Part shown: in pieces, positions 1 through 64,000 of the stretch
How positions within the stretch are numbered: position 1 is the first letter of the stretch
How the letters are laid out: each line of letters opens with the position of its first letter
Assembly (NCBI GenBank): GCA_905178155.1
Contig: CAJINV010000011.1
Coordinates: 2,035,894-2,099,893, forward strand
Source of the DNA: Amoebophrya sp. A120
Taxonomy: Eukaryota; Protista; Dinoflagellata
Direction of reading: 5' to 3'
Length of the DNA: 64,000 bases
Program-made: the position numbers and the translations under genes
The notes under the pieces: generated by a model
What the model saw: the letters and a program-made list of their open reading frames with translations, nothing else
What the model was told of the DNA's origin: nothing
Database searches by the model: none

Positions 1-3000
1 GCGTGCCGGATTCCGCCGGTGTCGGAAGGCCCGGCGGAACGTGTATCAACTGGAAAAGTGTCTGCGTCTGGAAGAATGCAACCTGTGATGCTAACTTTGG
101 ACTCTAAAAAAATCTGTATTGCATGACCAGCAGGGGGAGTCTAGTTCGTGCTACGCAAAGAGGGCATTTGTCATGCGGAGTAGGCAGGACGAACCCCCCT
201 AAAAATCTGTGATGCTAGGTCGTGCATTACAGACATCCTGGGTGGTCATGCAAACTATGCATGACAAACCCGGCAACATTCCAGACCCAGACATTTTTGC
301 AGTTCATAACGTGGAGTCCCGCGCCACGCGGAGAAAATCGTCGCTGAAGCCCCCGTATCAAATGCAAAAATGTCTGGCTCTGGAACGAAGCAACTTGTCA
401 TGCTAAATCCGAATCATGTAAACATCTGTGTTGCATGATTCCCAAAAGCTTTCCACTTTTGACCTAATCGAGAGGAGGCAGTTTCTCATGCAGGATTATA
501 GGCATGATAGAAATCTCAGAGAATCTGTCATGCTATGTCCTACATACCAGACCTCATGGCTCATGCAAAACGTGCATGACAAGTCTAGGATTCTGCCAAA
601 CCCAGACATTTTTGCATTTGATACCCCGCCTATGGTCTCCATCTGCAGCAGCTGCTGCAGATCCCGCGGGTTACTCGACCGGAAGTCGCGGCTGCGTCCG
701 CTACCCGAACTCCCGCCGCCACTGCTGGTCAAGTTCAAAATGTCACCAAGGTATCTGTATTTAAGTGTGTTGATCAAGTGAGTTTGTGTTTGATATATAA
801 TTTTAAATTTTCGATACTTCTTCTTCTGCAAGAACTCATCGACACAAGCTGCAGGAGCATGATCGTAGTTATACTTCTTCAAGATGAAAATTGCAGCTAC
901 AAACATATCATGATCCAACTGAAACATCACTCAAAAGATCAGTATACAACTCCATCAGTATGCATCCGAAAGAGTAGACGTCCGTGCGCGCGTCCCACTG
1001 GACGCCAATCATCACTTCGGGACTGCGGTACTGCCGGGTGGAGATCACCTCGCTCTTTCGGTCCACGTCCTCAAAGATAGCCCCGCCGCAGTCGATAATC
1101 TTGATGTTGGCGTACCGCGGGCGGCGGTACTCTCCGTCCTCGAAGCACCCTTGCACCAATATCAACTGCAAAAGTGCCTCCGTCTGGAAGAGTGCCAGAT
1201 GACTTGTCATGCAGGTTTTCCGTGACCGATGAGGTCTGGTATGTAGGACATAGCATGACAGATTCTACTGTGAGAATTCTATCTATCACGCCTATCCTGC
1301 ATGAGAAAGAACTGCCTCGCCTCGATTAGGTCAAAAGTGGAAAGCTTTTGGTAATCAAAATCATGCAGTACAGATTTTTACATGATTCAGATTTAGCATA
1401 ACAAGTTGCTTTGTTCCAAAGCCAGACATTTTTGCATTTGATAACCAAGACCCCCTCGCGGTTCCGACGGCTCGGGGACACGCGGCGGCCCAGGAAACTG
1501 TACCGGTACTTCCGCTTCCACCGGGTGTACTCATCGCCCCCGACTTGCTGGGCCTCGTACTCTTTCCAGCACCGTTTCGGCGGGTCTGCAGTGCGGGTTG
1601 GTGAATACTCGAACAGAATATTCTCCGGCTTCAGGTCGGTGTGCACGCATCCCAGCTGATATTTAGATCGAGAATTCTTTACAGTTCAGTGCGGCAAATT
1701 TTATTTTACCGATTTTATTATTTTTGTTTATATCCAGAATGAAGGGTCATGCAAAATTGGAAATTACGCTCCGTTGCGGCCTCTACGTTGGAGCAGACGA
1801 ACTAGTGATTAAGTATGTTGTTGGTGCAGAAATTTAATATCTTCGAGGAAAAAAGCAAAACTGTACGTAACAATAACAAAGAAACGTACGTTGTGCATGA
1901 AGGTTAAGGCATCGAACCCATCCTTCCCAATCTTCTGAATATCCCGCAAGTACATCGGGCGGTACTGGTTTCCGGTCAAGTGATCGTACCTGATTTTTCG
2001 TATATATCATTTGGGTGACTCTTTCAGTTCCATATTACTCCCCCGCACGCAATAAACTGTCCATCGGTAAAATAAATGCTCGCCATGATCTAGTACCATC
2101 TTCAGCATCAGATCATGCACTTCTACAGCATTTGATCATTGCGTCCGACTGCCAACTTCATCAGCACGTCTTGGAACACACAACCAATGCGCGTCGAAAA
2201 ACAGAAAACAATATCAGTACAAGCTGACGGAAAGTTTCTCGAAGACCATTACAAAGTGCGACTCCTGGTTGGGACCGGCGGGGTGCATGAACTGCTCCAC
2301 TAGGTGGACGATTTTGTGCTTTCCCTCGCAATATGGATTGCAAATATGTATGGGTCTGGAAGAAGGGAACTTGTGATGCGCATTTCACAACACACAGAAA
2401 TCTCTCATGCATAGGCAGCAAAAGATACCCACTTTTTGTCGCCAAAGTGGGGGATTTGTCATGCGGATTAGGCATTGCAGAACCTTCTCGAAATCTGTGA
2501 GGCTAGGGCTTCCATGCCGCACCCTCTGTGTCATGCGAAAACAGCATGACATCTTCCAGACCCAGACATATTTGCACTTGATACGCAAACGCCGTCCAGG
2601 AACCGACTGGATTCGTCCTGTAACCGCTGCAGTATGCGGAATTCGTCTTCTGCGTCGGTCCGGTACTTCTCGCCCGACCGAATCACCTTGGCCGCGTAGG
2701 ACTTTTCTTCCTTGAGCCCCCGCGCCTCTCGCTCCTCCGGGGTCCCCTCGAAGCTCACCTCGATCACGCGGCCGAACGTGCCGTCGCCCAGATGCGCCCC
2801 GATCCGCCACTTGCTGTCCGTGCCCAAAAAGTTGAGGTTTGCAAACTGGAAATGCTCGATGTCGTCATTGCTGTTGCTGTGACTCGTATCCAAGAAAAAA
2901 TCTGTGTTAGTGTAAGTCTTTTGGGAAAACAGCATCACAAGTTTGTCTGCCATGACAGGACAAACTTCTTGCTATGCGTAGATACAAAGGGAACACACAT

Positions 3001-6000
3001 AGGAAGCGAGCCAGACATGCATGTCGAGCATGACAAGTGTAACTGTTTGGCATGTTCTGCATCACAGATTTACACTTACACAGTTTTCTTCTTGCATAAC
3101 TCGCCGCCCGATCGTGGTCTTCATGCTCCTCGTCGTCGTCGTCGCGCCCGCTGCGCTATCAAATGCAAAAATGTCTGGTTCTGGAAGGAAGCAGCTTGTA
3201 ATGCTACCTTTGGATTCTACACAAAATCTGTATTGCATGAACAGCAAGAGAGTCGCAACTTTTGCTACGTGGAGAGGGCATTTCTCATGCGGTATGAGCA
3301 TCAGAAAGCCATCGCAGAATCTCTGATGCTAGAGCATGCATCACAGACCTTATGGGTCATGCAAAATCTGCATGACAAACTCCAGCATTCTTCCAGACCC
3401 AGACATTTTTGCAATTCATATGCGCCTACTGCTCCGGCTGTACCTGCTCCTGCGGTGGTGCGACCGGGACCGGCGACTATCCTCCTCGCGTTCTTCGCGA
3501 TTGTAGTTGCGGCGTCCGCGTCGTGAGTCGGCGTTGCCCCGGGCTGCAGCACCAGCGCCGCCCCTCCGCTCTGACCTCCTCCGCCGGGAATCATCGGCAT
3601 GCTCTACGCGCCGCGCTCCCAAGGATCTCGCACGGCTCGCCCGACTTCTTGGTACGCTCCGTCGCCGCCGGTCGTGCTCGACAGAGAACCGCGCAGCAGT
3701 TATCCTATGTCAAAACGTCCCCACCCCATAGTCACAAATTTGGAGTCGCAATGTAGTCCTGTTTGAGGTACTTCAGCACCATCACAGATTTAGTATATCA
3801 TGCTGATTGGCGCATTACAAAATCCAAGACACGGCTGGAAAACACTTCTCATGGGGCTCCGCATGACAAACAGTTTGAGCATGCAGATTTGCATGACAAC
3901 TCTGGGGTGCGAACGTTTTTACACAGGATAGCAGCATCACGATCTTCAGCGTCCCGCTCCCGCTCCTGTTCCCGCCACTCCAAGGAGACCGGACGCATCT
4001 CCACGTCCTCGGCTTCGCCGTGCAAGAGTCCTGCAGCTCCGTGCTGGGGTCCTGCTTCTGCATCTTCACGGCCATGTTCTACTTCCTCCCGCCCCAGAAG
4101 CTGCTCGGGCTGCTCCTGCTGCTCGTGAAGAAGATCTTCATCCTCATCCTCGTCGTCATCATCATTTCTCGGATTGATCAAAAACTCGTCCTCCTCCTCG
4201 TCGCTAATGGGGTCGTCGTCGTCGTGCTCCTGGGGGTCATCTTCCGAAATGTTCTCCCCGTCGCCGGCCTGCTCGGGCGAAAATGATAAAGCGTTCTCGC
4301 CCTGCTCCTGCTCTCCGCGAACCGCCACGGGGCTGGCGCTCAAACTCAGCGACGTGTTTCCCCGGGCACGACGATCGTTTGGTGCGATTGCTTCCTCCCC
4401 GTCGAAGATGTTCTCGATGTTCTCGTCCAGCTCCGCGTCCTCGTCCTCCATTGGCGCTGCATCATCATCATTTTTATCCTCCTGCTGTTCGTTTATTGAC
4501 AAAGACCCTCGATGATCTACTCGGGAACCACGACCGCTTGCGCTTGCGGAAAACCGTTCTAGTTGTTGTCCTTGTGCTTCTCGCCGAGGAGTGCTTCTAT
4601 CGTGGTCCTCATTAATGGTGCCTCTATTTCTCCTGTACAAGTTTCTGGTGCTCCCGTCCGCGCTGCGATTGTTGGGGCTGATCTGGAGCGAGTTGATGTT
4701 GATGTTCGCTTGAAAATTATTTTGTGCGTCTTCATCGTTATTTTTATCCTGGTCTAAGTTGTTGTGCTGCAAAAGTCCTTGTGGTCCCCTTCCGTGCGAA
4801 GAACCCCGTCGACTGCTGTTGTTCCCGCGCGGACTTTGGTTATTGGCCGCGTCGTATGCATTGCAAATATGTTTGGGTCTGGAAGAATGCAACTTGTGAT
4901 GCTGCATTTGGAAACTACAAAAATCTGTATTGCATGAACAGCATAAGAGGCCCAGTTGTTGCCACTGCGAGAGGGCATATGTCATGCGGTCTAGGCATCA
5001 GGAAGCCCTCACAAAACCTGTGATGCTAGGGCATGCATCACAGACGTCAGGAGCCATGCAAAATGTGCATGACAGACCTTGCATCCTTCCAGACCCAGAC
5101 ATTTTTGCAATGCATACGTCGCGGGACCTCGCCCGCTCGGCCTCTTCGGCGGCCGCAGCTGGCGCTGGTGGTGCTGCACGGGGACTGAGGAAGAGCTCGC
5201 CACCCGCTGCGTCGCTCGCGCGCCGGCTCTTGTTCGATGGAGTGGTGGTTTGCTTCTGCTGCTGCTGCTCTACAACTTGTCCCACGGCGCCCGGGGCTGT
5301 TTTTTCAAAGTGAAAATATTGCTTACAAAACAAAAATGGAGATGCTTTTAATTTCATAAATGAATTCAAAATCCTCGATGATGTAGTTCCTGTTTTGTTT
5401 CATCAAAAAACATTTTCAAAATACCGGCCCCTCCTGTATCGTTCTCCCGCAGCACCGGCAGTGCCGACGATGCGAGTTCTTCCGCCATTTTTCCGGTTGC
5501 AGTGTCCTTGTCTTCCACACTGCTCTTCGCGCCTCCAACCACCGCGACGACGTTCGGCGAACTCTTTCCCGATTTCAGCATTTGCAGGGCCTCCCCCACT
5601 TGCTTCGCGACCTTCGACCCGTGCAGCTGGTCGTGCACTGCTGCTGCGGCACTACTTGAGGCGGACGCGGCAGCAATATTCTGTGTAGTGCCCACAGCTG
5701 AAGAACTTCTGTGCGTCCCCGACGAGTTCCCTTGCCGAGAAAGGTTGGGCAACTGAAAAGAGCGGTTTCGCTCAGACGGCGAGGAGACCGGCGCGGCTGC
5801 ACCGATGTTGTTTTCATTCGCAGTATTTCCACGTCCTTGTTGCGGACTTTTCTTAATGTTCTCGCCGCGGCCAACTGTCGTTTTTTTGTTCGTGCTGCCG
5901 AGGTTTTGGTTTTCCTCTTCGTCTTGGCTCATGATCTCATCCGCGCCCAGGAGGTCCTCGCTGGCTTCGAAGCTTTCACTGTCAGCACCGTCAGGGTCGT

Positions 6001-7680: not shown

Positions 7681-9707
7681 CGTGCTGTAGTTCTTCTTGT
7701 TGCCCGCTCTTGTTTACGAAGCGATACCGACCGACGCAAAAGAATTCTTGAATTATAGTTATTTTTCTTCACGCGACCCGCTTCCAGAAGTAGAAGTTGT
7801 TGCGAAAAAATATTGAAGCGTGAAGTTCTTGATCACGCCGTGGTCGTCGAGAGAAATCTTCCAAAAATTTTCTGCCGTGGTGGAAAGGTTCGCTATCCTC
7901 GGAGGTACCGCAATGTTTGTAGTCAAGGTCAAGGTTGAGGTCGAGATCCACTCCGTTGGTACAATTCTTCTCTTGGTCGTCCCCGATGGTGCTTATTTTG
8001 GAAGCTAAGACACAACTGAAACAACTTGAACTATTATCCTTTTTACGACACTAGAGAATATCAATATTTTTGAAGAAACGTAAATCCTTGCTAGTCTCGG
8101 TCTCCTTCGATCTTCGGTTACAGGACTTTGACTCCACTACTTTTATTGTTCTAAAAATTTTATTCGCCGAATTACTAAGCCAGCACCACACACTTCGTTG
8201 TAACGAGAAAAGAACCTTCACTTTTTGTTGATTGCAGCCGCGAGACAATTTCACTACTTGGATATTTTTGTTCTTTTTTGGTCTGCGCCGCGCCGGAATC
8301 ATTTATTTTCGCACGTACAAAAAATCTCCATCATTTTTCTAGAGATTCAGCACACACCCGATTTCCGTCATTAACAGCATCAAAAAATTCGGATTTAGTG
8401 CTGTGTACGGTAATTCTAGTTCATTTTCCATCTTTACCCTTGTGCTTCCACTTGAGAAGTACACGGTCTGATTTCGTTCTTCTGCCAGATCATCTGAAGC
8501 ATAAGCATCAGCCATTAGTAGGAGAAGAATACTCATAAGTAGATCCATGTAGAAGTTGCTTCACAACGTGTGTGCTTGTTGAGACATCAGTGGGAAATAA
8601 CTATCAGTGAAAGACCACCAAGCCTCTTGTCTGCTGCTTTTCCTCTTGTTAGGATAGAGTACTTACTTTCAGAGAAACCACTTTCCACTGCTGCAATTAT
8701 CAAGAGGAGTGCGGAAGTTGTGACCACTGGCAAACACAATGTAAGACTAGCACAAGATTAGGCATATTTTTACCATGGGATAGCAGGATAGGTAAAGCCA
8801 CAGGTGCTTACAAGTAGAACCTCTCTCAAGCAATAAGAAACCAACGCACAGGTTATTTACTGAGCACTTCTGACCGGTCGCAGTTTTGAGTGAAAAGCGG
8901 TGCGGCGACACCATATCATCAAGAAGAAACATTTCGTTACCCGGATAGAAACGTGTTGAATACCCTGTAGGAACACGGATTGACTTCCTGCGACAGCCAA
9001 GTACTACTCCACCACCTAGGAGCTGCTTTCATCGTTTTCACGGATCTTTCATAGTGTGTTTCAGACTGTCTGTCGACGCGCTACTGGTTTCTAATACGAA
9101 AAAAAGCGAGAGTCAGCACAGTCGCGCAGCTTGTTCTTTCCTTGCTATGCAACGGGTTCATTTTGTGTCACCGCCCGGAAATTCATTTTACCGGTACCTA
9201 TAATGCTTGTTACCTACTATGCACAACCCGCAGTTCCAGCATCTAGATCATGTACGTCTAGCATGATATACAAAACTTCACACATCTTGAAAAAATCATA
9301 GGCCATCAGACAGCAAAAACCTATGGCATTGTGATCCAGCGCTCGCTACAAGCTAAGACAGGTAGACGATTTTATTTTCTAAATTTATGGATACACGACG
9401 AGGAGGCATGACACCGCCCTCGTAAAGAAAAATCAACCTGACACAGAAACTGTGGCATGGGCGTGATGAGCCACGTGTTCGCTTCGTTAGGAATAAAAAT
9501 TTATCGATCGGTTCATTTTTTACTGGGCCAACACTTATATATCATTTAACCGAAATCTTACACCTATTTGTTCGTTGAAAAAGTGTGAAAAAATGAGTGC
9601 AATAAGCTGCCAATCTTTTATCCTACATAGTGTCGTGCAGTTTCATTTCATATTTAAATGTCATGCTCTACCCATAGCCACCTCGGTGGACAAGCTCTAC
9701 TCATGGT

Positions 9708-12455
9708 CTAAACGAACAGTCCCTCGACGTCGGCGAGGCTGCCCTTTCGACTGCAAAAGTCCGCTACGGTCGACAGCGACTCGACCCGCTGCATAATTGG
9801 ACACGTTTTGTTCTTTTTTCCGAAACAGCTCGTCTCGCTATCCATCCCCTCGTCCAACAACTGTGGGGGCTTCTTGCGAAAGTACCCAGTACCTCCTCTT
9901 CCCGTTGATGTGCTACTGGGTTCGGTCGAGATTATCGAGGTAGACAGGCTGGCGGAGGACGTCGACGAGGACACGGATTTTTCCGAAAAGCAAGCCGGTG
10001 AGAGCGCGACTTCTTCGGATGTTATGTCGAAAATTTCCCCCGTGCTTTCGAGCTGCCGCAGCCGCTGTTGCGTCTCTTCTACCACGTCGTACCGGACGTG
10101 GGAGAGGAGCACGGAACCCGGCGAGGTCGCCATGTCGCGCGTGATTGGCAGCCAACCACCTACGTTGACGGCCGGAGAGAATTTGATGACCGCGGGCAGG
10201 GATGAGATCTAGGAGAAGTCCGTTTTATATATATTTTTTTACTATTGATTGTCCTGTGTCAAAATCATCTCAATGTCGCCGCGAAATGGGCATGACGTCA
10301 AATAAGAACTCATCAAAAGAAAAAGTTTGGAAGCTCAATATGTTCCCCGAGCGAGCCTGGTGGAAACTACTTACATCACAACCTACTGACTCCAACTCCT
10401 CTTTTCAGCTCTATATACCTGTCCATCGTGATCCAAATCTTTGGCCAAGGAGCCTTCCTTCTGTGTGTTCCGCAGGTCAAATTCCACACACCTGCGCTTC
10501 AAAACGTACCGAAAGTTCCGCTCGAGCATCTGTCGAAACAGCTTCCCCTCGTTGACGAGCACGTCTGCGAGCACCTCGTGGCAGCCCGTTCCCGTGGCCT
10601 GCTGCACGAGCCACGGCCCCGCGCCGCCCTGCAGTCGCGCGCCGACCTCGATCAGACAGGGTCCGGTCTCGGTGAGCATCACCTCCCCGTGGCTTATCCT
10701 GTGCAAAAGAATCGCACTCGTGTGTTAGTAATTGCGCCTATGCATTACAAATCTACATGCTATAGGCAAATCAGCATGACAAATTCCATTTGTGAAGATG
10801 CTGAGCTAATTTGTATTGCAATACTACGAGTACGACACTTTTGCAAAGCATATGGCTGGCGCCGAAGTGAAAGCCGAGCGCGTCCAGGCAGGCGTGCATG
10901 TAGGCGATCAGGAGATTGGCGGGGGACTCGCACTATGCATTGCAAAAGTATCGTATTCGTACAAATGCGATACAAATTTCTGCAGCATAAGTAATGCAGA
11001 TTTAGCTGTAATGCATGATTGCAACACGAGTACGATTCTTTTACACAGGATACGCACGCATCGATGACCTCGACGGACTCGTAGGTGATGGAGTTGTGTG
11101 CGGGGTCAAAGTGCTTCTTGTAGCGCAGCAGGCCCGTGACCACGTGGCGGCCCTTGAAGGACACACTGTTGACGACAAACTCCGTGCCCCGCAAAAACTC
11201 CTGGGCGAGCAGCTTCTCGTTGGTTTCGCCGTTGCAGTTTTGTTTGCTCTATCCAGCGCAAATATGTCTGGCTCTGGAAGACTGCAAGGCTTCTCATGCA
11301 GGTTTCGCATGACCCGGAAGGGATAGAGTGCGAGCCTAGCATCACAAGTTTTGAGAATCCTCCTCGGTGCCCATTCTGCACGAGAAATGTTGCTGTCTTG
11401 TAAGTGTAACCGATAAACTGGGCACCTTTGTTGGTCACACAATACAGATTTTTGTGTCGATCCAGCCCAACATGACAAACTCAAATTCTTGCAGACCCAG
11501 AGCACATATTTGCAATGCATATGTTCAGCTCTTGGTAGAACGCGTGGTCAATGTCTGCAGCGCTATGGATGTGTCAGGATTGAAATCTTCGACAAAGTTG
11601 AAATATTAACTTGTCATGCATAAAATGAATGAAAGTCGTAACCCAGTTTCCAAGTGACGCATGATAAATTTGGGTAGAGCCGAAATCCAGTTTGTCATGC
11701 TGTTTGGGTAAGGCAGAAGCCTTTTGTCATGCTACTTCAGCAGCTCAGTTTCTACCCCTTAACAGGCTTACAATCTGCCTCCCTCGCTTACTCAGCAAGA
11801 CAAGCACCTTGTGGCTTGCATTTTATGCATCACAAACTATTTCAACTTTGACGATTTCAATCCTGACACTCCCATACGTGCTGTGACACCAGTACACGCC
11901 GTCCGTGCCCCCGGAACAGGCTGGCTTCACGATGATGGGGAAGGAAATGTCGGCTGCTTCCATCCAGTACCGCACCTCTTCGGCCGTCGCGCAGTAGCTC
12001 TGCCGGATGGCGCGGAGGTTGCGGTCGCGCAGCCGGGCCTGCTGGTCGAACTTGTGTCGCCGCCAGGAGCTCGTTCCTGCGTCATTGGAAAACTTGGGGT
12101 CGCCTAAAACCGCTTGCAGTTGCTCCGCGACGACGACCCCCGGCTCGCTGCCGGCGACGACCGCGTGGATGGATGATGGTGCACAAGCTGACAGCGTGTT
12201 TGAAAGAAAATTTCGGATCTTCCGCGCGGTGTCTTCCACGGTGCTGAACTGCACCACCGCAGCGAAGTCCGCCGGCTCGAGCTGCCGCAACCAGAAGTCG
12301 GCGAGCTGCAAACTGCTCTGCACCGCGATCAGCGTCGCACCGGCCTCTTTCAGGGAGGCAACCAAACTGCGCCCGGTCGAATACGGGTCTACGACCACAA
12401 TAACGCAACCACAATAGCGCGGATCGTGGGAAGGGGCTGCAAGATTTTTTGACAT
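9708..12455 (-). CDS. ATP-grasp ligase (L-amino-acid ligase/NikS-DdaF-like), multi-exon
   Basis: Spliced motifs VVVDPYSTG, VVAGSEPGV, FPIIVKPACSGGTDGVYWC, LAQEFLRGTEFVVNSVS, GASHGEVMLTETGPCLIEVGARLQGG. Confidence 0.85.
10695..10852. mobile_element. Introner family C (TIR TATCCTGTGCAAAAGWATCGYACTCG)
   Basis: TSD TGGCT. Confidence 0.88.
10934..11052. mobile_element. Introner family C (shortest, 119 bp)
   Basis: TSD CGCAC. Confidence 0.88.
11250..11521. mobile_element. Introner family A
   Basis: TSD TGCTC/TGTTC. Confidence 0.85.
11564..11876. mobile_element. Introner family D (TIR TATGGRWGTGTCAGGATYGAAATC)
   Basis: Degenerate TSD AGCGC/CGTGC. Confidence 0.85.
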
Positions 12456-13191
12456 CTTGTTTTCTTTTTTGATGCGCAATAGCTGGCCCTGCACGTCGCG
12501 GGCGACCTCCAACCAAAGGCTGGAAGATGATTTACCAGGAAGGCTGTAGGAGATAAGTATGAGATTGATAGGAATAAAAAATCCCCACTGCAAAAAAAAA
12601 CCTGCACCCGCACTCAGTTACAGAAACGACCCTATTTACACGTATACGCGCTTTCACTCAAATACGCCGCCGGCGGAGAGAAGAAAATTTGAAAGGGGTT
12701 AGGTTCTTGCGCACCAGCACTCTGCCTCGGTTCGGCTGTACTAAGTATACGCCGGAAGAAGAAAAACTCTCAGTCTGAACAACAAAAGTAGTTGCATCAA
12801 GACTACTTGAACACTCGAGCTGCAGACCGAAAGCCCCTCAAACACCAAGTAGGCTGGCCGGCGAGGAGTAAATACATCAATATGAAATCGGCTTATTGCT
12901 CTAGTACTACTCTGTGGTTTTTACAGGCAGTGCCGTCTTCACCCAAAGTTGCAGTCCCCGTCAGCGTTCATCGTTCTCGCCTGCGCTTCAAGATGATATT
13001 GACAACTCTGTATATTGACAGCGGAAGCAAAAGTAGCATACCAGCGGATCCGGATGATACAGATTAAAATAAAAGGACCATCAAAGTAGTGGCCATCACA
13101 GATGGACGAGCCAATTATCCCTACCCTAACCTACGAATCACAACTCAACGGCGCAGGAGTTCTTAGTTCCGCTGGAAAGGCAAACGCCGCG

Positions 13192-50937: not shown

Positions 50938-52472
50938 TCAGCACGTGCGATCCTTGCTGGCTGCTGCACTGGAAGGTGAGTTCCTGCCGCTTTTGTACTT
51001 CTGGCAATGTCGACAGCTTTCCATCAGCGTCTTCGCCCATTCGATGCCGCTGTTCTCCCCGCCGTCGAGACCGCTTCGCTCCTTTACCTATCCAGATGAA
51101 AATTCTTCCCCCCTCCCAGTATACCTAAACGAAACTCAGAATGGCAGATGCCTAGCCTGTCGGCCGCCCAACAGGATCTCCACAAATCGCCTGCATAGTG
51201 CGGCGGCGGATTTGTGGTGACAAATCATCAGGTTCACAAACATAATCAATCTTTCCGAAACTCATACCTGATTTTGCAACGGGGAGTAGGGGGGATTTAG
51301 ATTTCCCTTTATGATATCGCTTGTCGTGTGTTCAGCACCGTGAGCACGCCGTAAATGACCGGTTTTTGACTGTCCAGGTTGAGCCGCATGACGCCCTGCG
51401 TGGCCGTATCCTAAGCAAAATACGCGTCCCCACGACCCCAGAGTCAAGTTCAGGACCTATAGCAATACAAAGACAAATCCAGCGGCTACTTGAGGAGTCA
51501 GAGTCACGCATAACAAGATCTAAATTGTATAATTGTCGTGCATTTCAGAAAGGACAGCCGTGAATCTTCACAAAGCCATCTCCTCGTCCTGTTTACAGCA
51601 TTACAAATGCCAAAACAGGCTTGGGAATGACTTTCATGGATATCGTGCGCATTTTTACAAGTGTTCCTGTAGATATGCAAATGTGCACGACAGCTCTGGG
51701 GTGGGGACGTTTTTGCTCAGGATAGACCGCCTCCGCGATGTACTCGAAGTGCATCGTTTCGCCCTTGACCAGACACCCGATCACCAGCACGCCGTCAAAC
51801 TATCACAGCAAAAAGTGTTAACGTTAATGGAAAAATTTGTGAAGCAGTAATGCACCACTAAACGCGCCATCAAATTTTGTCATGCATAATAAAGCATGCA
51901 TAATAAGCTCAGTGTCCATTTGTGATGCATGACTGCAATCGGTGAACACCGTTAGCGTTACCACTTTTTCTTGTGATACAAACTGGGGGAGCATCACGCT
52001 CGCGGCCAGTGGCAGCTCGTACGCGCCCGCCACCCGCTCGACCGTGACCTGGGCGCCCGCACTTTGCAGCGTCGTGACCGTATGCATTGCAAATATGTCT
52101 GGGTCTGGAAATTTGTAATGCCGGATTGTAAGTAGTGAATGCTCTGCAATGCACAGCCAAGCACGAGAAATTGTATTTGCGTGGCTTGGTGTTACGCTTT
52201 CCGCATGACGAACTGCGTCTTTGCGTGACAAGCAAAACAAAGGGTCTCTTCTTGGACGCGCATCATCACAAACTCTTTAGTCATGCCAGACAAGCATGAC
52301 AAACCTTGCATCCTTGTTGCAGACCCAGACATATTTGCATTTGATAGACCGCGCCGTCGAGCAACGAACCACAAATTTCCGGATTCCACCGCGCGCAGAC
52401 GATGCCGACCTTGATGCCCGTTCCGTCAAAGTCCTGCTCGGGCAGGCCACGCAGCGGATCCTTCGAGGCCAT
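50938..52472 (-). CDS. ribH: 6,7-dimethyl-8-ribityllumazine synthase (5 exons)
   Basis: KVGIVCARWNPEIC, VAGAYELPLAA, FDGVLVIGCLVKGETMHFEYIAE, PVIYGVLTV, NSGIEWAKT. Confidence 0.93.
51407..51724. mobile_element. Introner family B
   Basis: TSD GGCCG/GACCG. Confidence 0.85.
51801..51978. mobile_element. Introner, singleton TIR TATCACAGCAAAAAGTG
   Basis: TSD CAAAC; removal gives MLPQF|DGVLVIG. Confidence 0.88.
52081..52346. mobile_element. Introner family A
   Basis: TSD GACCG; removal gives DGAV|TTLQ. Confidence 0.9.
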
Positions 52473-53180
52473 TTCGACGCTCCGAAGTACTTAAGTATTC
52501 TACTTCAAATTAGAACTACTCCTTTTGTTCAAAGTCCTTTATGAAAGAAAAAGGAGAGGCTCTTCAAATCAAATTGAAAACAACTGTTCGTGCTGTCGAG
52601 AAAAAAAAGCCACAAACCACGACCACTGTGACCGCCCTTGATGCAGTAAAGATCTATTTATGTAAAGAAAATTATACCATCGGCTCTGACGTAAATCTTC
52701 AATCATTCTTTATTCGAAAAAACTTTGAACCGCGATGAAGATGTCTTTTCCTGTAGCTATCGATCTTCCACCTCTGGCGCTTGTGATGAGCTCTTCTTGA
52801 GACCGAAAGGACACCTGCACGGTGAGGCAGCTAAAACGTCGTCAACAGAACACTTTTGACTTCAATTTTCGTCGAATGATAACAGCAAGAATGCCTGCTA
52901 GTTGTTGTTCGGCATTCTTATTCTTTTCCGTTCCATGACCCCTTCATCTTGGCTCAAGGTCAAGCTTCACTGTATTTTCGTCCAACGTGCGGGAAATTTG
53001 CTTGCCCTGCTTCATCATTGGAGGTCGGATAATAGTACTCATCCTGTAGTTCGTCGACGTGCTGTTCTTGGTCACTATTAATGTAATGAATCACTCACCC
53101 TCGTTCTTTTCTTGTTCTGGCCTTCTAGAAAAAACCGTTTAGCCCTGCATCCTCACTACCACTTTCACACCCGCTACACG

Positions 53181-56100
53181 TCACGTCCCCGACAAGCCGT
53201 AAGCCAGAAGCTCCGCAGCGAGCTGGTCGGCTGCCGTGAAGTCGTATCCCAGAGAAAAAAGCAGGCTGGGCATAAGCATATCTGTGATGCAAAAAGAAAA
53301 TAACATCTGTCATGGGTGGCCCCATATGGCACGCTGCTTAGGACAGGCAACACAGATTTTTTTACCTATTTACCTTTGGTGCATTACAGATATGGCCTGC
53401 CAGTTTTTTTCTGGGAGATAAGTCGCCCGGTTTGCCCAGGAGCTCCACACACCCTATCACCTTCTTGTTCTTTTCCTCCTTACCTTGGTCTTCGTCTTCC
53501 TCAAGAGCAGGTTTGTCTTTGTTCCCGATAAAGAATTCTCCATTAGTCTTCTTTCCGGCAGTAGTTACGGGAGTCGGAGTTGTTGTACTTGATGAAAATA
53601 AATTCTCACTCGTCGAAGTGCCATCTTCCCCCTCGTGTACCATCGTGCCCCCATTCTCGAAAACCGGCACCGCCAGGACGCTCTCGCCCGGAGCCCAGAT
53701 TTTGTCCACGGAGCCGGACAGCCGTACTGTCGTCCCGCTATGCATTGCAAATATGTGGTCTGGGAGATCTGGAAGAGTCTGAGTTTATATATCATGCTAG
53801 TCTGGCATGACTCTGAGGTCTGTATCTCTCTCGTCTGCCATTCATTTCATTTCACTGAGACGGGCCCCCTGTGGTCGTCCTCGCGGTGTCATCCTGGCCC
53901 TCGGCTATTTTGCACAAATGTTGGCTGTGCCCAGCAAGATGACGGCTCTGCATAGGCAAATCTTGGCAATGTCCAGCAAGAACGGAGTTTCTCAAGCGGA
54001 ATACGCAAGACAGAACCACAAAAAAACTTGTCATGCTTGGCGGCGCATTACGGTAGTTGTGATGTGCAGTATTTGTATTACTCATTAACTTGCATCACAA
54101 CTTTATTCCAGACCTAGATCGATATTTGCAGTTTATACCCGCCCGTGCGAAACACTTCTTCCGCCGCCGAGGCCTTGGCGGAAAACCGCGCGTCCCAGTT
54201 GCCCGTATTAGTTGCAAATATGTCTGGGTCTGGAAGGATGCGAACTTGTCATGCTGGGCTCGCAGTTTTCCTGTGAAATCTGTACTTTTGCATGACCAAC
54301 AAAAGTCCTCGCAGCGTCTTTTGTCATACCAAAATGGAGCTCTTTCTCATGCAGACTGCGTATGAAAGTAAAGCGTTCTGCAAAATTGTCATGCGTGGCT
54401 GCATTTAGAAGTGTTTCCATCATCATCCATAGTTTATGTATAGCATCACAAGTTTCCCTTTCCAGACGTCCCGGGATATTTGCATTTGATAGCCGGTGGC
54501 AGCCCTCGCTACCAGCTCGCCCTCCGCCACTACCGCGAGGAAAAATCCCCCCTCCCCATATTGAAACGGCACGCACCTGAAAACTTTCGATACTGATTTG
54601 TTGTGGGCGCAAGTCGTGTCTTTCTTGCAAGAGGGCAAATAAAGAAAGTCCGCCAAATTACGCGAAAGGTTTGTGATGCTGTTAGACTTACCGAGAGGAC
54701 GTCTGTAATGCTGAGCGCCTACCCCAGAACACCCCTGCCCAGGGTCCGCATCTGTCCGCAGTCCTGTACTGCAGGACAAAGCTGATTTGTGTACTCAAAT
54801 CCCGCATCGAAGATATGGGGAGGGGGGATTTTTAATTTTGATAGCCGCGTCGTAGATGTACAGGATCGCCTGGAAAGTCAGCGTGGGTCGGTTGTAAACA
54901 TTTTCCAATCATTTTTATCTTTTGTAGTGATCGAACAATTTCATCCTCAGGCGCGAATCAATTTTTATCGCCAAGCAGTGTTTCTTTTCACACGTGTGCA
55001 CGAGAGCAAAAAAAATCTGGAACGACAAAGCGAAAGCACACCAATAAAACTGCCCGGCATATGAAATAATGTAGAAGACGCGTCAAACATTGTCGATTTT
55101 CAACAATCTGAATCAACTTCCTTAATACCCGCTTCGCGCCGAGCACGGTTGCGAGCATGCGGAGCCACTGGGCCACGAAGATGCAATCAGTACTGTCGGC
55201 ACGATTGCTGCGGCCCTGCTCCACCACGTTCTGCGTAACGAAGAACAAAGCGATTGCCTCGAGCATGATCTTCCCGCAGCGCTGCGCGAACCGCAGCGCC
55301 AGGGGCTCGCCCAACAAGCACTCCAGCACATCGGTGTGCTCCGCCCGCTGCAGCTGCACCGCCACCTATCGCACGAAAAACAAACTGTTTCACTGTAACA
55401 AAGAACTTGTGATGTTGCATAGAGATAGAATGGAACACAGAAGCTGCGTTTGTCTTACTTACTTACACATGCAAGAGCAAGACGATAAATTTCTAGGCGT
55501 GCTGTCTATTCCCCCTAGGAGTAGGAACAATATCCTCGCATGGAAAAACACTATAAAGTTTTCTTTCTCATTTGTAGCGACCTTGTGATGCAGAACTCGC
55601 AAAATCTTTACAGTGAAACACTTATCAAATGTAAAAATGTCTGGGTCTGGAAGAACGCAACTGGTGATGCTGCATTTGGATTCCAGAAGAATCTGTATTG
55701 CATGAGTACCAAGAGGAATGCAATTTTTGCTATGCGGAGAGGGCATTTGTCATGCGGAATAGGCATCAAGAAGCTCTCAAAAAATCTGTGATGCTAGGGC
55801 ATGCATCACAGACATCAGGGCTCATGCAAAACGTGCATGACAAGTGTCAGAATCTTCCAGACCCAGACATATTTGCATTTGATAACACTTTTTTCGCAGG
55901 ATACCACCAGTGCGGTAAACAGCGGCCCGTACTCGAACACGAACGGCGCGTGGAGTAGCGACGAGTATGGAAGCGTCAGGTTTGAAATCGACAAAGTTGA
56001 AATGATTTGCCATGCATAAAATGCAAGGCATGAAGTGCCTGTCTTGCCGGGATGACAAGTGAGGCCGACTGTCAGCCTGTTTAGGGTTTGCAGTAGAGCT

Positions 56101-58543
56101 GTTAAAGTAGCAAGACAAAAGCAATCTTCTGTGCCCAAACAGCGTGACAAATTGGATTCCGGTGCTCGGAAGATTTGCCATGCACTGCTTGGAAATTGGG
56201 CTTCCAACTGGTATCAATTTTAAGCATTACAAGTTATTTCAACTTTGTCGATTTCAATCCTGACACATCCATAACGAGGGTCGTTCTCGTTGTAGTACCG
56301 AGGTGAAACATTACAATTGAGTAACTTACAACCACAGCATGCGCAAAAGATCACGACCTGGAGGGAGTTTCATACATCCGGGGGGAGGTTTATTAATATA
56401 GCCTTCTCCCCGCACAGAACTGCCGCATCTCCCCGCGCGATGCTCCGACGGGATAACGAGATTTACTCCCTCAAGCTGGCGGTGTGCAGCAGTTCTGAGT
56501 ACAATAAAAGTACTATTTTCACATGACAGAGCGAATCGCGCACGCATCACATCTCCCAGGTAGTTCACAGTGTATTTTCCCTGCTGTAAGCAGCACATTT
56601 CATTTCGAGTTTGAGGAAGTAACAGTCAGTACTGCAATCATTCTTGTTCACTTCGATAGCAGAGGAAGAAATTGAATCTGACCCGTCCTGCAAAGATCCC
56701 CGAAAGATGTTCTTCCCCTGCGGATCCTCATTTGCTGCTGCCAAGCCACCGCTCCGCCTTTCCTCTCCGTCGCTGGACTCCAGTAAAGTTTTCATCTTCG
56801 CGCGCGAAGATCGCGCAGATGTTGATGACGCAGACTGATTTACGTCGCTGTTGCTGCCTCTTTGATGTTCTTCGGCGGAGAATATCAACTGCAAAAATGT
56901 CTGGGTCTGGAAGATTGCAACTTGTCATACTGTTTTTGGATTCCAAAAAAATTTGTATTGCATGACCAGCCCGAGGAATACATTTTGTGCTACACGACCA
57001 GGCCACTTCTCATGCGGAAGGTGCATCAGGAAGCCCTCTAAAAGTCTGCGATGCTAGGTCATGCATTACAGGCATCATGGGTCATGAGAAATATGCATGA
57101 CAAGTCTTGCATTCTTCCAGACCCAGACATTTTTGCATTTGATAGAGAACACGGGCGTGCGCGTTTTGCGCACGAACCTGCCGTATCAAATGTAAAAAGG
57201 TCTGGGTCTGGAAGAATGCAACTTGTCATGCTGTTTTTGGACTTTAAAGAAATTTGTATTGCATGACCAGCAAGAGGGGTGTAGTTTGTGGCACACGGAC
57301 AGGGCATTTCTCATGCGGAGAGTGCATCCGGAAGGGTTCTAAAAATCTGTAATGCTAGGGCATACATCACAGACTATCATGGGTCATGAGAAGTATGCAT
57401 GACAAATCTCGCATTCTTCCAGACCCAGACAGATTTGCATTCCATATCCCGCTCCGCCGTCCCGAGCGCGACTCCTGTTGTACTTCTTCCTCCGTCCTCC
57501 CGTCGCTGGACGCGGGACGCGCTCGTCCTGGCGGAGCAAGTAGAAATGGGTGTGCACTCTCTTTTCGGTCTACCGGCGAAGAAGCTCCCACGCGCCCGTC
57601 ATTTTTACCACCGGAGGACTGGTTGTGGTACAGCGGCTTTGAAGATGTTGTTGACCGCGGGGGTGAAGTAGGCGAGCAAGTTTTTGCAACTTTATGATCT
57701 CTGCTGCTGTCCAGCGGCGCGGTGTTTTTAGAGCCGGAGGAAGTAGTCGCGCCTTTGATATTTCTACCACAGTAAGAACCCGGCCGGGTGGTAGAAGAAG
57801 TCGAACTTGAACTGGTAGACGGCAGCAAACGCCAAGCAGGCGGCAGCTCCCCCTGCGGTCCCGGACGCGTGCCCCGCTTGTTGCTGGCGACGAAAGAGGG
57901 CAATAAATGATCGCCAGCGGCGGGGTTCGCAGCCTTCGTCCGGAAAAAACTTCTGCAGGGCCGTGGGAAGATTCCTTCATGTTTTTGCTGAATCGGAGAA
58001 GTTGAACCCATGCAACGACCCTGAAGAAGCCGCGCCCGCGGACATCACAACCTACTACAGCGATCTTCATATCTCGTCGTCACAACTTGAACCTATGCGA
58101 GCAAAAGAGGTACTCAAATATCAAACTCTACCTTCCTCGTCTCTCCCCTCCGCCACTTCACGATGAAGGTAGCCGTCCCGCTCCGGTGAAGCCATACTCT
58201 GCTCGCTTGGGGGATCGAATGCAGTCCGCTCATCCTCCTGTAGTTCCTGCCCACTGCACTCCGAGTTGTGTCCCTCCTCGCGCACGCGGTGCCGCAAGGC
58301 GTGGGTCAGTTCCTTCAGCTTTCCCACCTGCAGCTCCAAGCACTGGATGGTGCGAACGTGCGCGTTAATGGTGTCGTCCTTCTGGCGCAACCGCTTCTCC
58401 CAATGGGAGGGGGAGTAGACAGGCGCAACGCCTGGGACGAGCGGGAGGTCGTCTTTCCACGGGAAGGCATGACCGTCGCCGGGACTGGCCGTGCGGCCTC
58501 TGCTGGTGCCGGCGGCGTCAGACGGGTCGGTGGCGCTTTCCAT
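53181..58543 (-). CDS. Coiled-coil and GAF-domain-like protein, multi-exon
   Basis: N-terminal heptad-like WEKRLRQKDDTINAHVRTIQCLELQVGKLKE; C-terminal GAF signature SVLAVPVF...VIGCVELLGKPGDFTAADQLAAELLA. Confidence 0.6.
53245..53420. mobile_element. Introner family G
   Basis: TSD AGTCG. Confidence 0.9.
53739..54137. mobile_element. Introner family A, enlarged and degenerate
   Basis: TSD CCCGC. Confidence 0.82.
54206..54491. mobile_element. Introner family A
   Basis: TSD GCCCG/GCCGG. Confidence 0.85.
54531..54843. mobile_element. Introner family F
   Basis: TSD GCCAC/GCCGC. Confidence 0.85.
55367..55903. mobile_element. Outer introner (TIR TATCSYRCGAAAAA..TGTTTCACTGTAA) containing a nested element
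   Basis: TSD CCACC. Confidence 0.85.
55623..55884. mobile_element. Introner family A nested within the outer element's TIR
   Basis: TSD ACACT. Confidence 0.9.
55966..56273. mobile_element. Introner family D
   Basis: TSD ACGAG. Confidence 0.9.
56883..57144. mobile_element. Introner family A
   Basis: TSD GAGAA. Confidence 0.9.
57184..57446. mobile_element. Introner family A
   Basis: TSD TGCCG/TCCCG. Confidence 0.88.
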
Positions 58544-59449: not shown

Positions 59450-62400
59450 TCACAAGTGTTCCTTCATGGTCTGAAGGTACCCGTAGGCCAGCTTCAGCGC
59501 GCCCTGGCTGGTGGGGTGAATGTGCGTGACGTCCGGGGCGGAACCCACCAGGCCGAACAGCTCGTGCACCGCAATGGGCACCACCTTCGTTTCCGGCCAC
59601 TCTTTCTGCAAGCTATTACAGTGAAAAGTGCCCCCCATCCCTGAAATTGCAAAAATTTATGATGCGAAGTTTCCAAATGAAAACTTTTTGTCATGCATGA
59701 AAGGAGTATGAATCTTTCTGATGCAGAGTATAGGCGTGTATCGCATCGCTTGCATGACAAGCGCCGCACTTGCTGGGGTCTTTTGCAATACAAATTTTTG
59801 CTATTCACGATCGGAAACCTGTGATGCTGATTGATGCAAGAGGGTGAATGTTTCATTTGGAAAGGTTTGCAATACAAATGCTCGCAAGTTCGGGTGTGGG
59901 GGCATTTTTCATTGTAATACAAGCGTGCGGCGAGCCGCTGGTGCGCCAGGTGGATGCGGCTCAATGTCGTTTCTATTGAGAGGAAAAATTCCCCCTCCCC
60001 AGATTGAAAACGCATTCGTCCGAAAATTTGCGATGCAGATTTGAGGTCACAAATCCTGTCTGTCTTGCAAGAAGGCAAAGCCTGAGAGTCCGCCGCATTA
60101 TGCCGGCGGTTTGTGATGCTGTTGGGCTTACAGAGCCGACATCTGTCATGCTGGTCCCCTACGTCAAAACCTCTCGACCCAGGCTGGACATATGCCTGCA
60201 GTCCTCTCCAGCAAGACAGGCCTGACTTGTGTACGCAAATCCAGCATCAGAAACTTCGTTTCGATATGGGGAGGGGGGATTTTTCATTTTGATAGTTTCC
60301 AGAAACGCGTTCCCGCTCCCCATACCCAACTTCTGCGAGAGCCCGAACAGAAACCTGGTTTGTTGGAAGTGGAAGAAAATACAGATTCACTTTGCGGCAA
60401 GACTAAGATCATAAACAGCAGCACACTTTCAATATACTGGTTCTTTAATTTGAATACGATAAAAGACAAAACGATACGCAGAAAGCTTGAGGCTGGACTC
60501 CGGGTGGAAGTAGCTGGGCAGCAGGATGAGGCGGGGCGCGTTCTGCTTGTCGGGGCATAGCAGGTGGAGGTACTCCCACTTTTCCTGCTCGAACAATCGG
60601 TCGATCAGCTCCAGGTACAGCTCCTCGGAGGATTTCTTTGCCTCCGCGCCCTCGGCATTAAAGACCTCCGCGAACAGGCGTCGCCCCTGCAGCAGGTCGT
60701 TGCCGCCGAGCGACACGACCAGCACGTCGTTCTTCCGGATGTTGTATGACATGCAATTATGTCTGGGTCTGGAAGAACGAAAACTTGTCATGCAAAATTT
60801 CCGTGCCCAATGAGGTCTGGAATGCAGGGCCTAGCATGACAGAATTTGTGAGGTCTCTATGATGCCTATCCTGCATGAGAAACTCCCTCTCATGTTGGTG
60901 AAAAAAGTGCAACTTTTGGTGATCACGCAAGACAAATTTTTGCATGCTCCAAACTTAGGCATGACAAGTTGGAACTTTTCCAGACCCAGACATATTTGCG
61001 ATGCATATGTTGCTGCGAAGAAACTCGTCGTGGGACTTCAGCCGCTCCTGCACGTAATCCGTGGCGAAACCCTGCTTCTGCACCAGAAGTCGCTCCTATG
61101 AGAGTAAACAACTCACCCTAGTCCCGCTTATTTGTATCATGGCATGAACAGCAACACAACCACCAGCACACGTCGTGGAGCCTGTACATGACAAATTTTT
61201 GATGCGCCGAGCTCTGTTGTACTGTTTAGCAGGCTCCCGGAATCATTTCTCATGCAAACATTGCCACAGAGAAGCAACTGGAGTTGTAATTTTCCATGAG
61301 AACAAATGAGGGGGAGAAAGGGTTGCGCACTCTCATAGCTCCCCCAGCTCGCTGCCCGCGATCGCGCCGTTGACAATATGAAAGCCTCAGGTTGGAAATT
61401 CTCAAAGTGAAAATAATTTGTAATGCAAAAAAACGACTCCAGTTGAAGCACCATTCCTAGTCGGCGCATGACAAATCTCCCGGGCACTCAAAACGTGTCT
61501 GTCATGCTAGTTAGGCAATGGGGTGCCCTTGTGTCGTGCTAATCAGCAGCCCAATTCTGAACCCGTAGAAGCACAATGGTCGGCCTCCATTGCGAGCTCA
61601 GCAATACAGGGCTTTTTGCGTCGCATTTCATGCATCACATCGGAGGTCTACGGGCAGTTCGTCCCTTGTGGCATCAGGCTCTACTAAAACCAATAAATTT
61701 ATTCATTCACTCATTCACTCACTACCCTCGTGATTCGATGCACTTCTGATGGCACATGTGGAAACACGATTGGCACCAACGCACTTCTGGTGGTGCGTGC
61801 ATTTACTTAGTCATAAAGTAGAAAGTATAACACGATGAGCATAGACAAACTTAAGCGCGAACTTTACGAAGTGCAACGTACGAGATGTGACGAGAGACGT
61901 CCTAGGACAGTGAAGCAAGGACGGCTACTGCCACACGGGGTCCCGCAGAGACCGAGCACAGGGCACCTGACCGTGGTACATCAAAGGCCTGGAGGTCTAA
62001 GCGGGTGCTCGCACAGATCGAGTCCAGGTCAACGAGTAGTACACCGTGGGTGCATGCTCACTACTACTCGAGGCCTCGATCTGTCGACAGCCCAAGCAAC
62101 ACAGGGGCGCGGCAAAAAGCGCACGACTGTCTACATACCGTGATGGTATGTACACTGTCGTCGCCAGCAACTGGCGATAAAAAAGCCTACAGACGATGGT
62201 ACGAAACTACGAGCACGAGCACAGACGTACGAACCGATTTTTGTTTTTCGTTTACGAAGTCATACCGATTTTTTACATGACGATGCAATACCGAAAAGGA
62301 TTTTGCACGAAGTGCCGTCGTGTAGCGATAAGAAACATTTTAGCAGCTGTTGCTTGGACGTATGAATCATCAAATGCTGCTTGTGGACGAACGAGCTACA

Positions 62401-63460
62401 AAACAACTACATGCATCACAAATTAATTCCACTTTGAGGATTTCCATTCTGAGGCTTTCATAGACCACCGCGAATCCGGAGTACCGGTGGCACCTGTCCG
62501 GGAAAATAATCCCCCCACCCCATACTGAAAGCGGAAACTTGTGATGCTGATCTGCGCCCACAAATCAGCTTTGTCTTGCAACATATGGGGCAAGAACAGG
62601 GAGCCGTTTCAAAACGCATTCCACGGCGCTAATCTGTGCAGCTGAGCTCTTGCCTACTGCAAAGCTGTCTGCCACGCCGAGCTGCTAGCCTTTTGCACAA
62701 CTAGTAATCTTCAGGCTTTGATGAATATATATGCCTTCCAAGCGCTTGCTGCAATACAGCGCAAATTTGTGTACAGAAATCCAGCAACAGAAATCTCCTT
62801 TGTTGCATCTATAGGGTGGGGGCTTTTTTCAACACTTTTATAACTTTCATCCGCGGGGGAAGTTTTTGACGCCACCGCCGTGCTGCTCTTCTCCCCCGGT
62901 CCCATCACACGGAAGTCTTTCACATCGTACAGCAGCTGCATCATCCAGTAGGTGACGTCCCTTATGCATTGCAAATATGTCTGGGTCTGAAAAAGTTCAA
63001 AATTTGCGATGCTACCTCTCGAGCGGACAAAAATTTCTCTTGCATGAGTGCCAACGGTAGTTGCTAGCTCTTCTTGCGCGTGGCACGCAAAAAGCGAGCT
63101 TCTTATGTGGGAAAGCGCATGACCAAGCCTACTTCGCCAAACCTGTAATGCTTCGCAGACCATGTGTCCGCCCCAGAAGATGCATGGCAAACATTAACAC
63201 TTGCACTCTTTCACACCCAAAAAACATTTGCGATTGATATCGCGCAGCACCTTTTGAATCTGCAGCGAGGGCAGAGCCTGCTCGTAGCCGTTCACCGGTT
63301 CAGCCCACGGCGACAGCGGGTAGTCGGGACCCATCATCACAAAGGCCTTGTTGTCCAGCGCCGAGTCGCCGCTGAGAAAGACAATGTCCCGCCCGTCCGC
63401 GCGAAAGGAGTCCGTCAGTGCCTGCAGATGCGGCACGTGCTGCCCCAGCTCGCTGAAGTG
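59450..63460 (-). CDS. SGNH/GDSL hydrolase; start not resolved
   Basis: Blocks VFLSGDSALDN (I), VNGAIAGS (II), VVSLGGNDL (III), DVTHIHPTSQG (V) after element removal. Confidence 0.8.
59614..59919. mobile_element. Introner, TIR TATTACARTGAAAARTGCCCCC (F-related)
   Basis: TSD CAAGC. Confidence 0.88.
59974..60294. mobile_element. Introner family F
   Basis: TSD GTTTC. Confidence 0.9.
60745..61007. mobile_element. Introner family A
   Basis: TSD TGTTG. Confidence 0.9.
61097..61337. mobile_element. Introner family E
   Basis: TSD GCTCC. Confidence 0.88.
61377..62462. mobile_element. Introner (D-related TIR TATGAAAGCCTCAG..TGGAAAT.CTCAAAGTG) with a 770-bp secondary insertion
   Basis: TSD GACAA/GACCA; 11-bp internal direct repeat. 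Confidence 0.88.
62495..62842. mobile_element. Degenerate family F-like introner; ends uncertain
   Basis: CCCCCCACCCCATA / TATAGGGTGGGG subterminal inverted repeat; no clean TSD. Confidence 0.6.
62963..63239. mobile_element. Introner family A (degenerate)
   Basis: TSD TCCCT/TCGCG. Confidence 0.8.
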
Positions 63461-63796: not shown

Positions 63797-63899
63797 TTAT
63801 TTACTGCGGAAAGTAAGTAGGTAGAATACGTGGATTTTTTCGTCTCGGTAGTAGGCTTCGTCCAGCCAGGCCCGGGTGACGTCCTCGGGCCACACGAAG
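63797..63899 (-). CDS. Last exon of a gene continuing beyond the window
   Basis: FVWPEDVTRAWLDEAYYRDEKIHVFYLLTFRSK* next to an introner; frame inferred. Confidence 0.4.
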
Positions 63900-64000
63900 T
63901 ATCGCAAGGAAAAATCCCCCCTCCCCATATTGAAGAGGTAGGTTTTCGAAAATTTGTGTTGCTGATTTGAGGTCACAAATCCTGTCTGTCTTGCAAGAAG
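63900..64000. mobile_element. Introner family F, cut by the window end
   Basis: TATCGCAAGGAAAAATCCCCCCTCCCCATATTGAA. Confidence 0.8.

Follow-up and report, generated by a model that had tools for sequence, protein, structure and literature searches.

The closest known counterparts of the elements studied here are the introners of the dinoflagellate Amoebophrya sp. A120. The passages on introns in PMC7789003 (Farhat et al. 2021) give these introners inverted repeats of the form TAT, seven variable nucleotides and AAA, together with direct repeats of 3-5 nt; they count 29,850 repeated introns in A120, at a mean non-canonical intron length of 240 nt, and describe a nearly complete set of spliceosome proteins, with U1 and snRNP27 undetected in A120. 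The same passages report that no transposase was found in A120, leave the intron borders unknown and see no splice signature. In the dataset of PMC12130899 (2025), row fam38 lists an A120 family as Ginger/integrase-like, with a 5-bp target-site duplication (TSD) and TA/TA termini.

We analyzed 64,000 nt of A120 DNA (contig CAJINV010000011.1, positions 2,035,894 to 2,099,893 of the forward strand; hereafter the window, in whose positions all coordinates are given), in which genes are interrupted by short elements bounded by terminal inverted repeats (TIRs) and 5-bp direct repeats. These elements share with the A120 introners the TAT/7 nt/AAA motif, direct repeats within the 3-5-nt range, a length of about 240-260 nt, many families, RNA-supported non-GT-AG splicing and an Amoebophrya host labeled A120, and they share TA...TA ends, a 5-bp TSD and the TIR with the family of PMC12130899. 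Because the window agrees with PMC7789003 on each point, the class is already known and the finding in its original form is no novelty; an initial annotation of the window had judged the class probably not new, and its remark that the excision machinery is unsettled in the literature also holds, as the intron passages of PMC7789003 leave the splicing mechanism of the class open. Where those passages give an unknown border and no signature, our analysis points to one register of cutting and to strand-specific bases. On balance, we favor the reading that the elements are published A120-type introners, short and non-coding, likely inserted by an integrase-type transposase and likely cut at N-TAT...ATA-NNNN by a predicted, relaxed U2-type spliceosome.

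Curation yielded 66 elements with TAT...ATA termini, inverted ends and 5-bp direct repeats, which with three degenerate copies and one truncated by the window end bear out the initial count of about 70; elements make up 28.7% of the window. The curated elements have a median length of 264 nt (range 119-1086), inverted ends with a median of 34 nt (10-90 percentile 14-55) and direct repeats that are exact in 51 cases, with one mismatch in 12 and two in 3. TAT is present at 62 of the 66 sense-5' ends, and inverted-repeat positions 11, 12 and 13 are A in 49, 56 and 58 of 66. A relaxed scan had listed 57 candidates, against 1-4 in shuffled sequence; two (38625-40030 and 50126-50387) were discarded as false and 11 were added through homology. 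A related 16-nt test gave 0 in 3 shuffles. When repeat lengths of 2-8 were scanned, TAT ends accompanied the 5-bp direct repeat only (39/40 matches) and were never among the commonest starts at any other length, and the sixth base beyond the repeat matches in 15/66 and 23/66 on the two sides. Clustering of 55 elements gave families of 25, 5, 5, 4, 3, 2, 2 and 2 plus 7 singletons. Insertions use all three phases (20/15/18), both orientations occur (16 versus 9, 5 ambiguous), and 53/65 elements sit in 15 long minus-strand frames. Searches of Rfam, and of viral contigs for the inverted-repeat pattern, each gave 0 matches.

The initial annotation proposed that each element is removed precisely, together with one TSD copy, and two lines of evidence agree with it. 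Removing element plus 5 nt leaves a longest open frame of median 290 nt, versus 182-194 nt at five alternative offsets (n=65 elements, Wilcoxon p <= 3e-7). Moreover, contigs from X3-X6, which are runs of one sample flagged as probable RNA, skip 6/6 elements in 9000-15450, each by its own length plus 5 nt: 163 nt at 10695-10852 (TSD AGCCA; X3 and X5), 124 nt at 10934-11052 (GTGCG; X3 and X5), 277 nt at 11250-11521 (repeats GAACA/GAGCA), 318 nt at 11564-11876 (GCACG/GCGCT), 243 nt at 13485-13722 (CCGAT/CCGAG; four runs) and 226 nt at 14155-14375 (TTGGA/TCGGA; four runs). TSD letters are given in sense orientation throughout. In one contig, four of the six are missing along with a canonical GT-AG intron (10209-10418, minus strand, donor GTATAT), which served as a control; because elements and GT-AG intron are skipped together, these contigs behave as spliced transcripts. 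Retention in mRNA and junctions at ordinary GT-AG sites had been named as outcomes that would contradict the proposal. All six elements were skipped, and a canonical G[T/C/A]...AG fit exists, in any of six registers, for 4/66 elements. A further candidate, 9267-9393, was rejected as a skipped element, as contigs run across it.

Precise removal could also take place in DNA, as the excision of ciliate-type internal eliminated sequences (IESs) does, or be mimicked by reverse-transcriptase template switching. The initial annotation had offered the former, and TA at both element ends is in keeping with it; a hairpin flanked by a repeat is an artefact substrate for template switching. The evidence nonetheless makes either version highly improbable. 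X1, a run of unrecorded kind that is DNA-like and possibly the source of the window itself, has contigs that traverse the elements with 0 other letters among the joints listed, so the absence from somatic DNA that marks ciliate IESs is not seen in this one run, although rare element-free DNA is possible given that X1 was judged among those joints. That the transcript-like contigs skip what the DNA-like run retains makes DNA excision unlikely. Element skipping shares contigs with GT-AG intron skipping, base conservation tracks the transcribed strand (see below), and uL29m, ribH and similar genes require removal. One ribH element, 51089-51316, is skipped even though its repeat copies (AGCGA/GGTAA) share 2/5 bases; the repeat would thus be a by-product of insertion rather than a guide, and template switching is unlikely. 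X1 depth reaches up to about 100,000 over elements versus about 30 between them, which gives no copy number, yet is compatible with a very large family.

Identical repeat copies inevitably leave an aligner with more than one solution, and the register, expressed as the number k of upstream-repeat bases kept, is readable only where the copies differ. Four joints admit k of 3-5 (11250-11521), 3-4 (11564-11876), <=4 (13485-13722) and 2-5 (14155-14375), and two X3 piece ends admit 4-5 each (51089-51316, piece end 51083; 57184-57446, repeats CGGGA/CGGCA, piece start 57447). The sole value common to these six informative junctions is k=4; two exclude higher values and two exclude lower ones. We infer that the intron is N-TAT...ATA-NNNN, in one fixed register. 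A register that shifts within the repeat from one intron to the next, with removal still at the RNA level, is improbable by comparison. Such variation is implied by the Fig. 3 legend of PMC7789003, which gives variable sites with an unknown border, and the portion of PMC12130899 on mechanism describes it as differing between families. No single junction pins k=4; set against this are the agreement of 6/6 informative junctions, bounded from both sides, and the inherent ambiguity of perfect repeats. Our literature search found no statement of a fixed register, the figures of PMC7789003 (S19-S25) lying outside its scope. Relative to the literature searched, the register and its spliceosome-like bases are new but foreshadowed: Table S4 of PMC7789003 shows T as the second base of each of the nine predominant non-canonical motifs, for A120 and A25 alike, and a remark there on four nucleotides upstream points the same way.

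To orient more elements, we used a pattern scan that returned 151 further loci, of which 147 (605 kb, without window overlap) were analyzed and held 400 distinct elements. A codon model oriented 202 elements directly and 326 via their locus, with 74 omitted; on the window, the same model called 55 minus and 0 plus at the threshold used. The oriented set comprises 392 elements, 326 from other loci and 66 from the window, 55 of the latter having been selected by requiring TAT...ATA. Across this set, deviations at end position 1 number 0 on the sense-5' side and 19 on the 3' side, and position 3 shows the reverse bias (14 versus 3, p=0.013); position 2 does not differ significantly (2 versus 6), and inner repeat positions 4-20 are unbiased (1773 versus 1801, loci only). 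At k=4, these positions become U at +2 in 392/392, A at +3 in 390/392, U at +4 in 378/392 and A at -7 in 389/392. The fixed 5' T and its varying mirror cannot be explained by pairing alone, and a DNA-level enzyme is not expected to track transcription. The base at +1 is free (G 121, A 102, C 92, T 77), as are the last four; a 3' AG occurs in 31/392, and G+1 with AG in 8/392. TSD sequence is free as well (171 distinct among 202 elements). The initial annotation was therefore right that no consistent GT/AG exists, but the absence of any signal was overstated, U+2 being invariant and A+3 nearly so once the register is fixed. As in U2-type introns, U stands at +2 in every element; unlike them, the elements have neither G+1 nor 3' AG as a rule.

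A donor beginning N-TATC resembles that of minor introns, whose consensus is RTATCCTT. Removal by a U12-like or other separate small nuclear ribonucleoprotein (snRNP) system would account for +2 to +4 and for the C found at +5 in about 60% of elements. We regard it as a marginal prospect: bases +6 to +8 are not CTT, so the elements fail the donor comparison, and the spliceosome passages of PMC7789003 report U11, U12, U4atac and U6atac as absent.

The conserved bases suggest how a U2-type machine might read these introns. Cuts would fall 1 nt ahead of the inverted repeat on the 5' side and 4 nt beyond it on the 3' side, as the six junctions indicate; together 1 + 4 nt equal one repeat's worth, so removal would restore the pre-insertion sequence at any site. 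The terminal TAT would supply donor +2 U, +3 A and +4 U, as in the GTAT donors of the organism, with +1 left free; both contig-supported canonical donors are GTAT (n=2). Because TAT is read inward from both ends, either orientation would work. More speculatively, the inverted-repeat stem, with predicted pairing probabilities of 0.75-0.94 at positions 8-25 and 0.45-0.69 at positions 1-7, may join both ends and replace recognition by U1 and U2AF. Also on weaker ground, the A at -7 is a candidate branch point, from which, or from the stem, the 3' cut might be measured, with AG not read; fixed short spacing between branch and intron end is found in some protists and yeasts. This detailed version falls slightly short of an even chance in our estimate: a spliceosome with no need of G+1 or 3' AG would recognize only N-UAU at the donor and the A at -7 and would make the 3' cut four bases beyond the hairpin, so that, 1+4 equaling the 5-bp duplication, insertions of this family into exons would be erased from the mRNA in any orientation or phase. 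The sole window copy without the -7 A (54531-54843; repeats GCGGC/GTGGC, 3' end GTA) appears in an element-containing X3 contig of depth 12.8 whose exon part is too short to count as bridging, a weak hint that this copy is seemingly unspliced. Loss of SNRNP27K has been tied to +4 U donors (PMC10581693), and snRNP27 is among the components undetected in A120.

The main rival keeps the same elements and register and replaces the spliceosome by a structure-guided enzyme that measures from the hairpin, cuts and ligates, as proposed for the nonconventional introns of euglenids. The stable terminal stem predicted here and the disuse of both G+1 and AG suit such an enzyme, as does the failure to detect U1 in A120 noted in PMC7789003. 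According to the sections of PMC11282704 on euglenids, a TIR stem joins the ends of those introns, which have TSD-like repeats and no GT-AG, as in the window, and they are released as circles, not lariats. Their junctions are also described there as pyrimidine/purine, a bias not seen in our 392 elements (exon -1 pyrimidine 173/392, intron +1 purine 223/392). The conserved bases, moreover, are strand-specific beyond what pairing requires, the 5' U being fixed with its partner free and the -7 A kept with its partner freer, and they coincide with spliceosomal +2 U, +3 A and +4 U and with GTAT donors. We therefore consider the cut-and-ligate explanation rather unlikely, if still a serious one. Fritillaria borealis is a precedent for TIR-derived introns that lack GT-AG ends and yet leave by way of the spliceosome: the parts of PMC11282704 and PMC13326754 on this species describe introns derived from miniature inverted-repeat transposable elements, with TIR and TSD, non-GT-AG ends and an altered U2 spliceosome. 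They differ from the window elements, which accept any base at +1 and at the last four positions, in their preferred end dinucleotides (AG-AC, AG-AT) and a duplicated U2AF.

How the elements spread bears on the same reading. TIRs, a 5-bp TSD of free sequence, both orientations, the lack of phase bias and a nested copy bounded by a separate TSD suggest DNA transposition, in line with the transposon-like origin first proposed, and the element ends would place the mobilizer near integrase-type families. The earlier statement that ends and TSD fit no listed superfamily needs a wider list: TA or TNT ends are known from integrase-type families, and the fam38 row of PMC12130899 already links TA...TA ends and a 5-bp TSD to Ginger-like elements. 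Membership in IS3EU, IS481EU and Ginger2 nevertheless fails by one feature each. Ginger2/TDD termini are TGT..ACA, from which the TAT..ATA ends of the window differ. In the family descriptions of PMC10045372, the TA..TA ends of IS3EU/GingerRoot are shared with the window, whereas the 6-bp TSD of IS3EU is not; the TNT..AYA termini of IS481EU fit, whereas its TSD is about 4, 15 or 25 bp; the 4-5-bp TSD of Ginger2/TDD agrees with ours; and none of the three joins TAT ends to a strict 5-bp TSD. The initial annotation had suggested a search for long copies with the same TIRs enclosing a transposase open reading frame. No such copy, no autonomous element and no integrase-type DDE transposase appeared in the 64 kb plus 605 kb scanned. 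The longest window element (61377-62462, 1086 bp, repeats TGGTC/TTGTC) holds 5 inner open reading frames that were tested and gave no Pfam match. It shares with a second 1.1-kb member of its family (positions 505-1608 of locus L018) only the ends and about 230 bp; the interiors are otherwise unrelated, a pattern suggestive of DNA capture. In locus L066, an apparent 6.2-kb 'long element' proved to be an artefact of the inner palindromes of two short copies; at 3529-3684 and 9628-9778 of the same locus lies a short family whose inner ACTAG-TAT...-like motif resembles an element end and possibly stems from an earlier nested insertion.

Several points weigh against integrase-type insertion followed by spliceosomal removal in one register. 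G+1 and 3' AG are normally required for both splicing steps. The branch point, lariat and snRNA pairing of the spliceosomal model are only predicted; the -7 A lies within the predicted stem, and the sequence upstream of it is variable, without a conserved U2-pairing context. A wider canonical donor consensus (16 sites) did no better than controls. With k=4 fixed by no single junction, a register varying from intron to intron also fits, and both k>=4 bounds depend on where single contigs of one run break off; X3-X6 are a single sample, only flagged as probable RNA, and contigs lose minor forms. The strand bias calls for caution too: position 2 has two deviations at the 5' end, 17 of the 19 3'-end deviations fall in genes given as minus-strand (2 versus 0 in plus-strand loci), and the 3'-end deviations cluster in 12 loci plus the window, with at least two that look like mis-called ends. 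Finally, the transposase was found neither in the 64-kb window nor in the 605 kb of other loci.

Interrupted genes show what removal restores. The frame of uL29m (MRP-L47; 35058-37043) contains elements at 35170-35340 (repeats AAGCG/GAGCG, sense 5' end TAA), 35513-35832 (CGGAT, sense 5' end TAC), 35989-36208 (GTCGT) and 36300-36444 (CTTGG); without these four, the product matches P0001, a protein that carries the label Amoebophrya sp. A120, at 100% identity over 328 aa and the A25 protein at 79%, gapless; for one exon the corresponding figures are 100% and 90%. ribH (50980-52490), a lumazine synthase gene in a parasitic alveolate, is split by the decayed-repeat element 51089-51316 and by 51407-51724 (CGGTC/CGGCC), 51801-51978 (GTTTG) and 52081-52346 (CGGTC); four exons match PF00885 positions 2-22, 26-56, 61-82 and 84-108, in order. 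A parse of the first of these elements as 51081-51316, with a perfect repeat, shifted the frame and was rejected, whereas 51089-51316 preserves it. The six TSDs and four rejoined junctions quoted in the initial annotation are all present in the sequence. A gene at 16387-23655 for a UvrD-like helicase whose C-terminal part is nuclease-like is interrupted by 12 elements, at 16601-16870 (GCTGG), 16936-17141 (AGTAA), 17201-17514 (GCTGA), 17569-17839 (AACAC), 17949-18215 (TTACA), 18279-18442 (ATCGA), 19028-19271 (CAGCA), 19377-19656 (GGCGC, sense 3' end ATG), 20002-20230 (TCAAA), 20976-21263 (CGAAC, sense 3' end ATG), 21584-22042 (TTTAC) and 22163-22429 (GAGGA). A JmjC gene carries 31656-31964 (CAACT) and 33313-33562 (AAATG), and a protein kinase gene carries 1160-1443 (TTGGT).

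All elements with an assigned strand lie on the minus strand. The interrupted genes of the window are likewise all on that strand, and mixed orientation occurred in 0/124 loci examined, in agreement with reported unidirectional clusters. Ahead of the helicase-nuclease gene, where tandem arrays with units of 33, 41 and 14 bp occupy the intergenic stretch 15526-16162, elements also lie at 44-308 (CACGT), 356-623 (CGGGG), 2332-2583 (TTGCG), 2887-3098 (CGAGT), 3157-3420 (GCGCA), 3701-3930 (GCTGC/ACTGC) and 4855-5116 (CGACG). Between that gene and uL29m are 24749-25038 (GCGTT/GCATT, sense 3' end ACT), 25127-25378 (GCCAC), 34638-34908 (CCGAC/TCGAT, sense 5' end TAC) and the degenerate 28867-29062 (GGATC/GGATG, sense 5' end TAG), whose removal leaves an open frame. 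From uL29m to ribH there follow 38405-38659 (CCGAA), 38808-38978 (TGTGG), 39996-40277 (CGCGT, sense 3' end ATC), 40599-40861 (TGTGC/TGTGT), 40993-41244 (GCAAG), 41300-41619 (CGGGC), 44098-44355 (GGAGC), 44402-44680 (GCCAA), 45093-45341 (GAGCA), 45441-45692 (CGGTC), 46460-46789 (AGCAC, spanned by an X1 contig), 47148-47363 (ACTTG, sense 5' end TAA) and 49109-49370 (TCGCT), at whose edge an X3 piece stops.

Beyond ribH, 53245-53420 (CGACT) is spanned by an X1 contig and has an X3 piece stopping at its edge; it is followed by 53739-54137 (GCGGG), 54206-54491 (CCGGC/CGGGC), 55966-56273 (CTCGT), 56883-57144 (TTCTC), 59614-59919 (GCTTG), 59974-60294 (GAAAC), 60745-61007 (CAACA), 61097-61337 (GGAGC) and 62963-63239 (CGCGA/AGGGA). 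A degenerate copy at about 62496-62840 has ends that are not resolved, and the copy at 63900-64000, truncated by the window end, has no assigned strand. The nested copy, 55623-55884, has its own TSD (AGTGT) inside the sense-5' inverted repeat of 55367-55903 (GGTGG), and the inner one may need earlier splicing, in a twintron-like manner. The raw-read runs X9 and X10 placed 17 and 6 reads and are uninformative; a few of these reads match element sequence only (49140-49195, 62410-62454), with differences, which suggests related elements in another isolate.

For tens of thousands of such introns, the literature searched leaves the route of splicing open. A fixed register would replace an absent signature by a simple rule, N-UAU ... 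AUA-NNNN, open to checks in existing RNA-seq; it also predicts the branch position and would correct exon borders in many gene models. If the reading is true, transposon and splicing machine are matched, and insertions into exons are cost-free.

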